Of a stretch of 6,778 nucleotides of DNA, positions 2,901-6,778 are shown piece by piece (position 1 is the stretch's first letter; each line of letters starts with the position of its first letter). The stretch is taken from IMG/VR virus record IMGVR_UViG_2695420382_000017; one strand, 5' to 3'. Made by a program: the position numbers and the translations under genes. Under the pieces are notes generated by a model, which was not told the origin of the DNA, did no database searches, and saw nothing but the letters and a program-made list of their open reading frames with translations. The DNA comes from a virus. Lineage: Duplodnaviria; Heunggongvirae; Uroviricota; Caudoviricetes.

Positions 2901-2908
2901 GCCCACAA

Positions 2909-2929
2909 GAAAACCCCTCCGGAGAGGGG
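2909..2929 (-). terminator. Rho-independent terminator, minus strand, formed by the hairpin at the edge of repeat copy A
   Basis: CCCCTC-CGGA-GAGGGG hairpin; on the minus strand it is followed by TTTTCTTGTG. It is convergent with the plus-strand terminator at 2873-2900. Confidence 0.45.
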
Positions 2930-3140
2930 CTAAAGCCGCGTATCTGTATCATCATGCACATGGTGCCGGGTGCCTCCCGGTGAGTTCAGCCCGGTGCCAC
3001 TAAACCCGCGTCATTCTCGTTTTGATAATCAGAGATTATACCGTCACCAGTCGCCCCTCCGCTCAGGGGGATTCACCATGCGAAATTTTTTTAACAAATG
3101 CCCAGTCTGACAGGCAACTGTCAACTTACTGAATTGTGAG
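2914..3140. repeat. ~210-bp noncoding repeat module, copy A (diverged, roughly 70-75 percent identical to copies B and C)
   Basis: Shares with B and C the blocks CCCCTCCGGAGAGGGGCT, CATGGTGCCGGGTGCCTCCCGGTGA-TTCAG, CGCCCCTCCGC-CAGGGGGATTCACCATGC, TTTAACAAA, CAACTGTCAAC and CTGAATTGTGA, separated by diverged spacers with indels. Confidence 0.7.
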
Positions 3141-3345: not shown

Positions 3346-3399
3346 CTGATACTGTAGTACCTAAGGTTCCAGAAACTGTGATGTATCCGGCACAGAAAA

Positions 3400-3608
3400 G
3401 CCCCTCCGGAGAGGGCTGGAGAGTGGCGCTATGTGCCATTGCATGATGCCGGGTGCCTCCCGGTGAATTCAGTACCAGCACCTGAATCCGCGATTATCCC
3501 ATATACCTACTCGCTGATTGCCCCTCCGCACAGGGGGATTCACCATGCCAGTTTCTTTTAACAAACTCCCCGCAAAACAGACAACTGTCAACCGTCTGAA
3601 TTGTGAAG
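3400..3608. repeat. ~210-bp noncoding repeat module, copy B (about 97 percent identical to copy C); distal end truncated by or abutting the IS1 remnant
   Basis: Near-identical to 5675-5884, differing by 1 indel and about 4 substitutions. Begins with hairpin GCCCCTCCGGAGAGGGC and ends CTGAATTGTGAAG, directly joined to internal IS1 sequence. Confidence 0.85.
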
Positions 3609-3946
3609 CCAGCGCTGGCGCGATTTAGCCCCGACATAGCCCCACTGTTCGTCCATTTCCGCGCAGACGATGACGTCACTGCCCGGCTGTATGCGCGAGG
3701 TTACCGACTGCGGCCTGAGTTTTTTAAGTGACGTAAAATCGTGTTGAGGCCAACGCCCATAATGCGTGCAGTTGCCATGTTTTACGGCAGTGAGAGCAGA
3801 GATAGCGCTGATGTCCGGCAGTGCTTTTGCCGTTACGCACCACCCCGTCAGTAGCTGAACAGGAGGGACAGCTGATAGAAACAGAAGCCACTGGAGCACC
3901 TCAAAAACACCATCATACACTAAATCAGTAAGTTGGCAGCATCACC
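3609..3946 (-). mobile_element. IS1 remnant: left inverted repeat plus insA-proximal ~340 bp, truncated internally
   Basis: Minus strand begins GGTGATGCTGCCAACTTACTGAT (IS1 terminal inverted repeat) at 3946 and continues with IS1 insA-region sequence. Relative to canonical IS1 as recalled from memory there appears to be an ~85-bp internal deletion. The element ends at an internal IS1 position at ~3609 with no right end. Confidence 0.8.
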
Positions 3947-4053: not shown

Positions 4054-4872
4054 ATGTGTCAGGTATTTGGTGTATCCAGGAGCGGTTATTACAACTGGGT
4101 ACAGCATGAACCCTCAGACAGAAAACAAAGTGATGAGCGGCTAAAACTGGAGATTAAGGTGGCACATATCCGCACTCGCGAAACATATGGAACCCGGCGG
4201 CTCCAGACGGAGCTGGCAGAGAATGGCATCATCGTTGGTCGTGACCGACTGGCACGTCTTCGTAAGGAGCTAAGGCTACGCTGTAAGCAGAAACGCAAGT
4301 TCAGAGCGACTACGAACTCGAACCACAATCTGCCAGTTGCGCCAAATCTGCTGAACCAGACGTTCGCTCCTACAGCACCAAATCAGGTCTGGGTGGCGGA
4401 CCTGACGTATGTTGCCACACAGGAGGGATGGTTGTACCTCGCTGGCATCAAAGATGTTTATACGTGCGAAATTGTCGGCTACGCCATGGGAGAGCGCATG
4501 ACAAAAGAGCTGACAGGTAAAGCCCTGTTTATGGCGCTCAGGAGCCAGCGCCCACCTGCCGGGCTAATCCACCACTCTGATCGAGGTTCACAGTACTGCG
4601 CATACGATTACCGGGTCATACAGGAGCAGTCTGGTCTGAAAACATCAATGTCGCGTAAAGGTAACTGTTACGACAACGCTCCGATGGAAAGCTTCTGGGG
4701 AACGCTGAAAAATGAGAGCCTGAGCCACTATCGTTTTAATAACCGGGATGAAGCCATCTCAGTAATACGGGAATACATTGAGATTTTCTACAATCGTCAG
4801 CGTCGTCACTCTCGTCTGGGGAATATCTCCCCGGCAGCCTTCAGGGAAAAATATCATCAGATGGCTGCTTAA
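4054..4872 (+). CDS. IS3-family transposase OrfB (DDE integrase-type catalytic domain), 272 aa from the first ATG; normally expressed as an OrfAB fusion by -1 frameshifting
   Basis: Translation contains hallmark IS3-family OrfB segments (NQVWVADLTYV, HHSDRGSQY, NCYDNAPMESFW, YNRQRRHSRLG), consistent with the DDE catalytic triad region. Confidence 0.9.
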   Translation: MCQVFGVSRSGYYNWVQHEPSDRKQSDERLKLEIKVAHIRTRETYGTRRLQTELAENGIIVGRDRLARLRKELRLRCKQKRKFRATTNSNHNLPVAPNLLNQTFAPTAPNQVWVADLTYVATQEGWLYLAGIKDVYTCEIVGYAMGERMTKELTGKALFMALRSQRPPAGLIHHSDRGSQYCAYDYRVIQEQSGLKTSMSRKGNCYDNAPMESFWGTLKNESLSHYRFNNRDEAISVIREYIEIFYNRQRRHSRLGNISPAAFREKYHQMAA

Positions 4873-4913
4873 AAAAAGAACAAATGGTAGTGTCCGCTAT
4901 TGCCAGTACACCT

Positions 4914-5042
4914 CAGGGTATAAGGGGTTATGGCCACCGGACTACCAAACGGCTGCCAGCCCTCTTTCAGTTTATGTGTCAGCTTTTCCGCAAGATCTGA
5001 CGGCGGCGCCGCCCTGACAACATCATAGTGTTTAAATGCCAT
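4914..5042 (-). pseudogene. nanS-p paralog, N-terminal 43 codons only, disrupted by the IS3-family insertion
   Basis: Minus-strand translation MAFKHYDVVRAAPPSDLAEKLTHKLKEGWQPFGSPVAITPYTL matches the first 43 residues of the intact NanS-p with 4 differences (about 90 percent nucleotide identity by eye), then reads into the IS right end. The upstream leader differs from that of the intact copy. Confidence 0.85.
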
Positions 5043-5235
5043 GGTTCTTTCCACCATCTGAAAAATAATTCTTTAAAATACCTGACATGTAATACAGAAA
5101 AAACACAAAACCATACCTTAAATAAAAACCTGATTATCAAGCAGATATGCATGGATAAACTACAAGACGAGATATAAACCACCCTGCATTTAAATAAACA
5201 ATAAACAACATCAGAAAAATAATTCTGCTCTATGG

Positions 5236-5638: not shown

Positions 5639-5674
5639 GGAGTTTACTCACATCTGACAAAATCAATATAAACA

Positions 5675-5697
5675 GCCCCTCCGGAGAGGGGCTGGAG
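5675..5697 (-). terminator. Candidate rho-independent terminator (minus strand) at the end of repeat copy C
   Basis: GC-rich 7-8 bp stem with CGGA loop; the downstream minus-strand sequence is T-rich but interrupted. Confidence 0.4.
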
Positions 5698-5884
5698 AGT
5701 GGCGCTATGTGCCATTGCATGGTGCCGGGTGCCTCCCGGTGAATTCAGTACCAGCACCTGAATCCGCGATTATCCCATATACCTACTCGCTGATTGCCCC
5801 TCCGCACAGGGGGATTCACCATGCCAGTTTCTTTTAACAAACTCCCCGCAAACCAGACAACAGTCAACCGCCTGAATTGTGAAG
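5675..5884. repeat. ~210-bp noncoding repeat module, copy C (complete)
   Basis: Near-identical to copy B and clearly related to copy A. On the minus strand it ends in hairpin GCCCCTCTCCGGAGGGGC followed by the T-rich GTTTATATTGATTTTG. Confidence 0.85.
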
Positions 5885-6085: not shown

Positions 6086-6439
6086 CTACCCCAGATGAGT
6101 AATCCGAAGTTCATCCATACCACAGGTCCTGGCTATTCTGTTGTACTCCTGAACAAGAGCAAATAATTCTGAATTAGCAACCATGAACTCATCGCAAACC
6201 CTCTGTATAGCATCACTATTCAGAATAATAACGTCTCTTCCCGAAAGACGATCAGGAGTACAGAACAAAACTGTCAAACGGCTGAAGGCCTTTGCTCGTG
6301 CTGCATTGACTATATCAATACGCTGCCTAAGGATGAAACACCCCGACGCCTCATCAATATTCACTCTACCCACACCATATGAATGATAAATATTTAATGC
6401 TGAAAAAACCATTAGACCGTATAACAAACACTCAATCAA
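6086..6439 (-). CDS. Hypothetical ORF, 117 aa, at the position occupied by stxAB in Stx phages; doubtful
   Basis: Open frame in late-operon orientation just downstream of the tRNAs, but it starts with TTG and has no recognisable Shine-Dalgarno, and no family is recognised. May be a decayed or noncoding region. Confidence 0.2.
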   Translation of the reverse strand: MIECLLYGLMVFSALNIYHSYGVGRVNIDEASGCFILRQRIDIVNAARAKAFSRLTVLFCTPDRLSGRDVIILNSDAIQRVCDEFMVANSELFALVQEYNRIARTCGMDELRITHLG

Positions 6440-6549
6440 TACTTAACAGAACTTTTATTTTTGACAAACATAAAATATTTTCAACAATATCCTGAGCCAG
6501 GTATATTTCAGTATAAGGCTCTGCCGGAAGGAATCTGGAAGAATGAATA

Positions 6550-6626
6550 TGGCGCGCTGTACTGGATTCGAACCAGTGACCGATTGCTTAGAAGGCAATT
6601 GCTCTGTCCGGCTGAGCTAACAACGC
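6550..6626 (-). tRNA. argO: tRNA-Arg (anticodon UCU)
   Basis: Minus strand GCGTTGT-TA-GCTC-AGCCGGACA-GAGC-A-ATTGC-CTTCTAA-GCAAT-CGGTC-ACTGG-TTCGAAT-CCAGT-ACAGCGC-G-CCA: canonical cloverleaf with a 7-bp acceptor stem (one G-U), TTCGAAT T-loop, anticodon TCT and encoded CCA. Similar to E. coli argU. The symbol is assigned by position; it could equally be argN. Confidence 0.85.
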
Positions 6627-6639
6627 TGAATACCGATAA

Positions 6640-6719
6640 TGGACCGCCATCGGGGACCCGCCCCCGCACCAACAACCCTGTTATCGTGTCGTCTGCTCTT
6701 CCTGATAAGCTAATGGCGG
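6640..6719 (-). tRNA. tRNA-like element or pseudo-tRNA: perfect 7-bp acceptor stem, discriminator U and encoded CCA, plausible D-arm, but no canonical anticodon or T arm
   Basis: Minus strand CCGCCAT...ATGGCGG-T-CCA with D-stem GCTT/GAGC and a GG-containing D-loop. A manual search finds no 5-bp stem with a 7-nt loop at the anticodon position, and the T-arm has a 6-nt loop (CGGGG/CCCCG stem). It occupies the middle slot of the ileZ-argN-argO type cluster. Confidence 0.35.
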
Positions 6720-6726
6720 TTTGTGA

Positions 6727-6778
6727 TGGTGGCCCTTGCTGGATTTGAACCAGCGACCTGGCGATTATGAGTCGCTCG
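6727..6778 (-). tRNA. ileZ: tRNA-Ile (anticodon CAU, lysidine-type, ileX/ileZ-like), 3' 52 nt only; 5' part lies beyond the window end
   Basis: Minus strand ...GACTCATAATCGCC-AGGTC-GCTGG-TTCAAAT-CCAGC-AAGGGCC-A-CCA: CAT anticodon loop, canonical T-arm, acceptor 3' strand and CCA. Strongly resembles E. coli ileX. Confidence 0.75.

Follow-up and report, generated by a model that had tools for sequence, protein, structure and literature searches.

Some bacterial RNAs have the shape of a tRNA and do not decode, among them tRNA-Other of Bacillus cereus and the tRNA-like domain of YrlA. A tRNA-like sequence is also reported from E. coli K-12, in xtpA, where it is contained in a leaderless mRNA that codes for a 60-aa peptide. 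Among phages, the closest counterpart of the locus analyzed here is argN, the tRNA-Arg(UCG) gene of Stx2 phages (e.g., Stx2a_WGPS8 and Stx2_EH2201), which lies between a CAU tRNA gene and a tRNA-Arg(UCU) gene. For stx2i prophages, a 2026 paper reports a 'tRNA-pseudo-tRNA-Arg' in most strains (PMC13641118), and a RegulonDB paper (PMC10767902) cites Muto et al. 2022 (J Biochem 171:459) for xtpA.

Here we analyze a 6,778-nt stretch of DNA (hereafter, the window) from a virus of the class Caudoviricetes (IMG/VR record IMGVR_UViG_2695420382_000017), in which the slot of argN is occupied by an 80-nt tRNA-like element. An argN-homologous pseudo-tRNA, labeled 'pseudo' or 'OTHER' in annotation, and the published xtpA tRNA-like sequence are already known. 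What is possibly new lies at the family level, namely, a single tRNA body that carries interchangeable non-decoding hairpins and displays tRNA-like conservation in both phages and chromosomes. No account of such a combination was found in the searchable literature, which leaves older subscription papers outside, and searches on ileZ/argN/argO, on yahM as 'tRNA-like' and on 6-nt anticodon loops also returned nothing. Neither tRNA-Other nor YrlA, which are non-decoding like the element, shows any sequence relationship to it.

Layout of the tRNA cluster and the element

This DNA corresponds to the late region of a lambdoid prophage, with genes for a P21-type holin, a DUF1327 protein and a DUF1737/SASA esterase. 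Its tRNA cluster (Table 1) runs into the window end, which cuts the CAU tRNA gene, a tRNA that is Met in ARAGORN and Ile in RefSeq; the complete gene, of the ileZ type, is found in mEp460 and in E. coli strain 120899. The latter strain matches the element and its two spacers at 100%, phage mEp460_ev081 matches window positions 6400-6778 at 98.9%, and in both the antiterminator Q gene precedes the tRNA cluster, which is matched by 289 phage records. The element follows tRNA-Ile after 7 nt, as had been stated in a preliminary description of this DNA; the gap to tRNA-Arg, given there as 17 nt, is a spacer of 13 nt (6627-6639).

No promoter-like or terminator-like sites were found inside the ileZ-element-argO cluster, so the three genes are presumably co-transcribed, and the only ORFs over the element are short ones that cross the tRNA genes. 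The GC-rich T hairpin of the element was considered as a terminator and ruled out, given that it has no U tract and corresponds to no terminator-like site.

Table 1. Features of the tRNA cluster, parts of the tRNA-like element and insertion sequence remnants, in window coordinates
Feature	Position	Strand	Remarks
tRNA-Ile2/Met, anticodon CAU, ileZ type, 3' part with CCA	6727..6778	minus	cut by window end; Rfam tRNA 33 bits
tRNA-like element, 80 nt	6640..6719	minus	argN slot; read 5' to 3' from 6719 down to 6640
Element, acceptor 5' strand	6713-6719	minus	
Element, U8 A9	6711-6712	minus	
Element, D arm	6695-6710	minus	4-bp stem (one G.U pair), 8-nt loop with GG and A20
Element, non-decoding middle arm AGACGACACGAUAACAGGGUUGUUGGUG, 28 nt	6667-6694	minus	in place of the anticodon arm
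Element, T stem-loop CGGGG-GCGGGU-CCCCG	6651-6666	minus	5-bp perfect stem, 6-nt loop
Element, acceptor 3' strand	6644-6650	minus	
Element, discriminator U	6643	minus	
Element, encoded CCA	6640-6642	minus	
tRNA-Arg, anticodon UCU, argO type	6550..6626	minus	ARAGORN; Rfam tRNA 68 bits; 13 nt downstream of element
IS3-family transposase	4054-4872	plus	
IS1 fragment	near 3588-3920	minus	

On the minus strand, the element reads CCGCCAU UA GCUU AUCAGGAA GAGC AGACGACACGAUAACAGGGUUGUUGGUG CGGGG GCGGGU CCCCG AUGGCGG U CCA. What had been noticed by hand folding holds on closer analysis: the acceptor stem CCGCCAU/AUGGCGG is paired along all 7 bp, its discriminator (U) and CCA are both present in the DNA, the D arm is good, a canonical anticodon stem-loop is missing, and the T loop has 6 nt. 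The sequence of this loop, GCGGGU, lacks U54, U55, C56 and A58. A 5-bp stem with a 7-nt loop cannot be drawn in the 28-nt middle segment, which folds as other hairpins. At minimum free energy, RNAfold pairs CGAUAAC with GUUGUUG (CGAUAAC/GUUGUUG, 7 bp) around an AGG triloop, both in the whole element and in the segment alone; in another register, a 6-bp GACGAC/GUUGUU stem encloses an 11-nt loop.

With default settings, the sole ARAGORN call in the window is tRNA-Arg(tct) at 6550-6626 on the minus strand, and the element stays uncalled when thresholds are lowered to 70% and in the intron and tmRNA modes; the 70% thresholds add only spurious opposite-strand calls. The Rfam tRNA model (RF00005) gave no match to the element at E<=10 in a 161-nt search. 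Across Rfam, at the gathering threshold and at E<=10, the element attracted only sub-threshold noise (YrlA, MIR169, mascRNA), with the YrlA model scoring 13 bits against a gathering score of 69. The relaxed ARAGORN, Rfam tRNA and tmRNA checks that the preliminary description had proposed thus returned no canonical cloverleaf. Since no detector calls the element, it is not an ordinary tRNA that hand folding had missed.

Relationship to argN and to a phiP27-type sibling

The element and argN have identical acceptor stems, discriminators (U) and CCA ends, and their D arms and T stems are nearly identical. They part ways in the anticodon arm and the T loop: argN has a canonical 5-bp anticodon stem with the loop CUUCGAA and a UUCGAGU T loop, and is called by ARAGORN, whereas in the element the anticodon arm is swapped for an unrelated 28-nt segment without the UCG anticodon, and the T loop is GCGGGU. 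C35 is an identity element for ArgRS. The T stem is all Watson-Crick in the element and includes one G.U pair in argN.

Judged by position and sequence, the element is an orthologue of argN, and the annotations together with the alignment bear out its earlier placement in the middle-tRNA slot of an ileZ-argN-argO type cluster. On the comparisons made here, the resemblance is not due to chance, because the two align base for base outside the anticodon arm, the T loop being the other point of difference, and because the element scores 67.3 bits (E ~1e-13) on a covariance model of its relatives that was built without it.

In phage phiP27 (stx2e), the middle element of the same cluster has an identical middle arm, AGACGACACGAUAACAGGGUUGUUGGUG, and a canonical UUCGAGU T loop; the phiP27 annotation around this copy includes ileZ and argO only, and PGAP calls an equivalent copy with the same middle arm 'tRNA-OTHER' in strain OkiPb01690. 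All copies of this type retain UUCGAGU in the T loop, and on the covariance model the T-loop-intact sibling (L006) scores 87.6 bits, ~20 bits above the window element. Judged by its distribution, the non-canonical middle arm is older than the window allele, because it is common to the family, including the xtpA tRNA-like sequence of K-12.

Two database records deserve a separate mention. A 367-nt contig assigned to Bacillus hominis (L174) carries an E. coli-type argN of Stx phages, which is probably contamination of that assembly, and a metagenome-assembled genome labeled 'Proteobacteria bacterium' (L185) carries a whole ileZ-argN-argO cluster.

A family with one tRNA body and many middle hairpins

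To collect relatives, sequence patterns were run against IMG/VR and against a set of genomes with a single one for each species. In the genome scan, the pattern CCGCCATNAGCTNATCNGGA was permissive, such that most of the at least 120 rows were unrelated coding sequence, e.g., from Streptomyces, and the species distribution given below is that among the matches listed in the scan. The family body comprises the acceptor stem CCGCCAU/AUGGCGG (CCGCCAY/RUGGCGG), a GCUC-loop-GAGC (GCUN) D arm, N73, CCA, and the T arm CGGGG-UUCGAGN-CCUCG. At the place of the anticodon arm, all members have a hairpin, with stems of 4-9 bp and loops of 3-9 nt in the predicted folds, and its sequence differs between groups: a canonical UCG arm in Stx2 phages (argN) and a canonical UCU arm in Serratia and Yersinia; arms with 7-nt loops that read AUU, UUG or GAC in Lelliottia, Yersinia phage YeP1 and other phage contigs; an ACGAC-loop-GUUGU hairpin with loops of 4-10 nt in the Klebsiella oxytoca complex, Citrobacter, Salmonella and the Escherichia chromosome; and the same hairpin with the 6-nt loop CAUUAA in about 30 phage contigs. 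The motif UUC[G/A]A in the T loop is invariant in 19 of 19 aligned relatives and missing from the window element, which retains the body and the variable hairpin and lacks both the canonical T loop and the tRNA-low variation of the family.

The covariance model of the family body (R1), from whose training set the window element was excluded, gave 79-91 bits for most members with non-canonical arms, which were mostly training sequences, and 65-67 bits for two others (L300, L307). Canonical Arg members reached 74-77 bits, copies of the window allele that have decayed further only 52-65 bits, and unrelated tRNAs 29-43 bits.

Several phages carry members annotated as 'tRNA-???' with the 6-nt loop (IMG/VR L250 and others), which have the same tRNA body as the element and a non-canonical hairpin. 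In these phages and in YeP1-3, the member lies in the same type of cluster, downstream of the antiterminator Q gene; the hairpin sequences and loop lengths, however, are unlike those of the window, and the T loops are intact. The YeP1 member (L310 1201-1278), annotated 'tRNA-OTHER / tRNA-Pseudo-TTG', opens its cluster, with the CAU tRNA following after 73 nt, and YeP1-3 have a compensated acceptor pair, U7-A66 -> C7-G66. The YeP1 middle stem, AUAAC/GUUGU, resembles the CGAUAAC/GUUGUUG stem of the window, which suggests that the window arm arose when the 5' stem strand was partly duplicated. We also looked for an amino-acid identity in acceptor features (a Pro-like C1-G72, NGG loops in some members) and discarded this idea, as there was no family-wide pattern.

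Conservation of relatives with an intact T loop

Across 16 phage clusters with the 6-nt-loop type, the element had a pi per site of 0.009, compared with 0.015 and 0.028 for the tRNAs on either side and 0.19-0.48 for the flanks, and its five variable columns were all in loops. In a separately retrieved sample of the same type, the changes in the 3' third consisted of loop changes, one G.U->G-C and one G-C->G.U, with no indels. As the search patterns fixed the 5' strands, covariation in the tRNA body showed only in incidental cases, namely, G.U->G-C in L272, G-C->G.U in L273 and the double change in YeP1.

Chromosomal members behave similarly. In the Klebsiella oxytoca complex (L207, L233, L214, L220), a member with a 4-nt loop (GUAC or AUAC) is intact in four species, while the adjoining tRNA-Thr(UGU) has degenerated in two of these four and is preserved intact in the remaining ones; both there and in Escherichia, the family element remains intact as a neighboring tRNA decays. 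On these patterns of variation, purifying selection acts on members with an intact T loop much as it does on tRNAs.

The chromosomal copy in xtpA

In E. coli K-12 (NC_000913.3), annotated xtpA (L309 2253-2435) covers the chromosomal tRNA-like copy. This sequence is 80.6% identical to the element over 88 nt and agrees with it in the body and in how the middle arm starts and ends (AGACGAC...GUUGU); unlike the element, it is chromosomal and solitary, with its own near-consensus promoter, an annotated leaderless ORF and a canonical T loop. The copy overlaps the start of yahM. Of 5426 E. coli genomes, 5169 contain it, and identity is at least 99% in 4822 of the 5171 matching records. In K-12, a divergent E. 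coli, Shigella, E. albertii, E. whittamii and Escherichia sp. E1V33, 80 of its 81 positions are invariant, compared with 63 of 100 just upstream and 4 of 100 just downstream in the same six genomes.

The peptide does not share this conservation. Codon 4 of the XtpA frame is a stop codon in three of these genomes (E. albertii, E. whittamii and E. coli SCPM-O-B-8794), and E. whittamii has a frameshift in addition, while the 81-nt RNA is identical. The frame being broken where the RNA is unchanged, the constraint on the chromosomal copy looks to be at the RNA level.

As to the surroundings of this copy, a near-consensus sigma-70 promoter (TTGACA, 16-17 nt, CATAAT) lies ~100 nt upstream (L005 ~2370-2430), flanked by the inverted repeat GAATGT/ACATTC and conserved with it across Escherichia; a Reg-Seq preprint describes a 'yahM promoter' repressed by IHF. 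The yahM gene downstream of xtpA is not conserved and is deleted in E. whittamii.

Variation and probable decay of the window allele

The window allele is the commonest, accounting for 45 of 118 IMG/VR copies, with copies at least 99% identical to it in 1267 E. coli records and, among GenBank phage records, in mEp460_ev081 and several vB_EcoS phages. Its variation was assessed in 91 intact prophage clusters, a sample that was retrieved with a 19-nt probe, is phylogenetically non-independent and is biased by pattern retrieval; in these clusters, pi per site was 0.063 in the element (in the 3' 48 nt outside the probe), 0.005 in ileZ, 0.010 in argO and 0.15-0.19 in the outer flanks, and haplotypes per nt amounted to 0.35 for the element versus 0.09-0.10 for the tRNAs. 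The allele therefore varies ~6-12x more than its tRNA neighbors across prophage copies. Many of the sampled prophages are defective, and argO itself occasionally decays there, so the apparent relaxation of the element is inflated.

The kinds of change found also speak of decay. Copies of the allele contain the uncompensated acceptor-stem changes C4G, G68A, G69A and G72A, as well as U8G, small deletions and three kinds of truncation or fusion (L028, L117, L015), and the G run of the T arm is very variable in length between prophages, with ~16 G at most. One argO lineage from these clusters, by contrast, carries a double change in the T stem that is compensated (CACTG..CAGTA -> CAGTG..CACTA). 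By these measures of variation, the window allele is not constrained. A decayed tRNA, one of the readings offered in the preliminary description, is thereby supported, the element being an argN orthologue without a decoding anticodon arm and canonical T loop; the added proposal that it is kept as a processing or spacer element finds no support, given that mutations strike the acceptor stem without compensation and that the variation of the element resembles that of spacer DNA. Nevertheless, some structural role may exist, because the allele in the window keeps a perfect acceptor stem, CCA, a D arm and an all-Watson-Crick T stem. Its being the commonest allele, and its presence in GenBank phage records, likewise count against decay.

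As a separate observation on this sample, the 3' end of argO is CTA rather than CCA in 17 of the 91 clusters (IMG/VR, e.g., within L009-L128).

Origin and possible function of the element

We judge it fairly probable that the element is a degenerating, non-decoding pseudo-tRNA allele in the argN slot that is drifting. The comparisons suggest a two-step history, in which the decoding anticodon arm of an ancestor would already have been exchanged for a short non-decoding hairpin, with the normal tRNA body kept, before the lineage of the window lost the T loop by one deletion and substitutions (UUCGAGU -> GCGGGU); from then on, changes appear to have accumulated at the rate of the surrounding spacers. 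The RNA would be passively transcribed with the two functional tRNAs, would be unable to pair with a codon, and probably would not form the D-loop/T-loop elbow. A minihelix of acceptor and T stem with CCA suffices as a substrate for bacterial RNase P. The corresponding part of the element could, in principle, still be cleaved by this enzyme, although no selection for cleavage is visible.

The main competing possibility, which we consider doubtful, is that the element is a working, non-decoding tRNA-like RNA that is excised by RNase P, trimmed at the 3' end and active via its acceptor/T minihelix and CCA, for instance, by 'punctuating' the processing of ileZ and argO or by engaging a tRNA-binding factor as a ligand or decoy. 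Such an RNA would fit its T-loop-intact relatives, which are as conserved as tRNAs both in the 16 phage clusters and in Escherichia (80 of 81 positions) and outlast decaying neighboring tRNAs in the latter and in the Klebsiella oxytoca complex, as well as the compensated acceptor pair of YeP1 and the 12-bp acceptor/T-stem stack with CCA that the window allele keeps. That allele, however, has lost a T loop that does not vary among the other members, and carries, among its copies, 5-6 independent and mostly disruptive acceptor-stem mutations in 14 nt, as against ~0.1 variable column per nt in the flanking tRNAs, while deletions of the 3' half or of CCA are tolerated. Moreover, the position of the slot in clusters varies, with the member being first in YeP1 and alone in K-12, and a general punctuating role for the neighbors is therefore disfavored. 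A tRNA-like regulatory RNA, as had also been proposed, thus stays open for the family, whose T-loop-intact members are under purifying selection, and is unlikely for the window allele, which lacks the invariant loop.

Two further readings fare much worse than that of a drifting pseudo-tRNA. That the element is a decoding tRNA of odd architecture (e.g., with an intron or an anticodon loop of 11 nt) that suppresses frameshift or nonsense mutations is very improbable: the GACGAC/GUUGUU stem with its 11-nt loop can be drawn, and the 7-nt loops of some relatives do read as anticodons (AUU in Lelliottia, UUG in YeP1), but ARAGORN finds nothing at the element even with introns and lowered thresholds, the hairpin of lowest energy has a 7-bp stem and only 3 nt in its loop, the loops of close relatives span 3-11 nt and are unrelated in sequence, which is incompatible with conserved codon reading, and the T loop required for the tRNA elbow is missing. 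Membership in a small coding gene like xtpA, suggested by the location of the ~80% identical K-12 homologue inside the annotated xtpA coding sequence, is so improbable as to be nearly negligible. The element is squeezed between two tRNA genes, at distances of 7 and 13 nt, and has no promoter, the equivalent frame in the window has no start codon, the ORFs over the element run through tRNA genes, and even the chromosomal XtpA frame is stopped at codon 4 in half of the six genomes with the RNA identical.

At the level of the family, the same comparisons allow a broader proposal, which we offer tentatively and consider less likely than not. The argN slot might house a distinct class of selected, non-decoding tRNA-like RNAs that combine one body and CCA with a fast-changing middle hairpin and act as RNAs, for instance, as RNase P-processed decoys, ligands or amino-acid carriers; the xtpA sequence would then be a domesticated member kept for its RNA and not its peptide, and the window element would be a recently or partly inactivated one. 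If T-loop-intact RNAs indeed act without decoding, they would form an unrecognized class of phage-derived tRNA mimics, and the window allele and its T-loop-intact sibling would provide a natural inactive/active pair for testing. For the window itself, the result is mainly one of clean-up, in that the odd element is a pseudo-tRNA rather than a new kind of tRNA, and annotation pipelines are correct to skip it or to label it 'tRNA-OTHER'.

Other features of the window

Downstream of the tRNA cluster and on the same (minus) strand, the window contains three full-length matches to Rfam STnc100 within 3 kb, at 2901-3110, 3388-3577 and 5664-5853 (161, 124 and 132 bits, respectively). A copy of STnc100 also directly follows the tRNA cluster in Lelliottia (L248). 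Our guess is that these copies are late-promoter leader modules of lambdoid phages. Two direct repeats, one of 196 nt with 98% identity (3413-3608 and 5689-5884) and the other of 140 nt with 89% identity (2549-2688 and 4913-5052), bracket the insertion sequence remnants listed in Table 1, and the late region of the window looks partly duplicated or rearranged around these IS elements.
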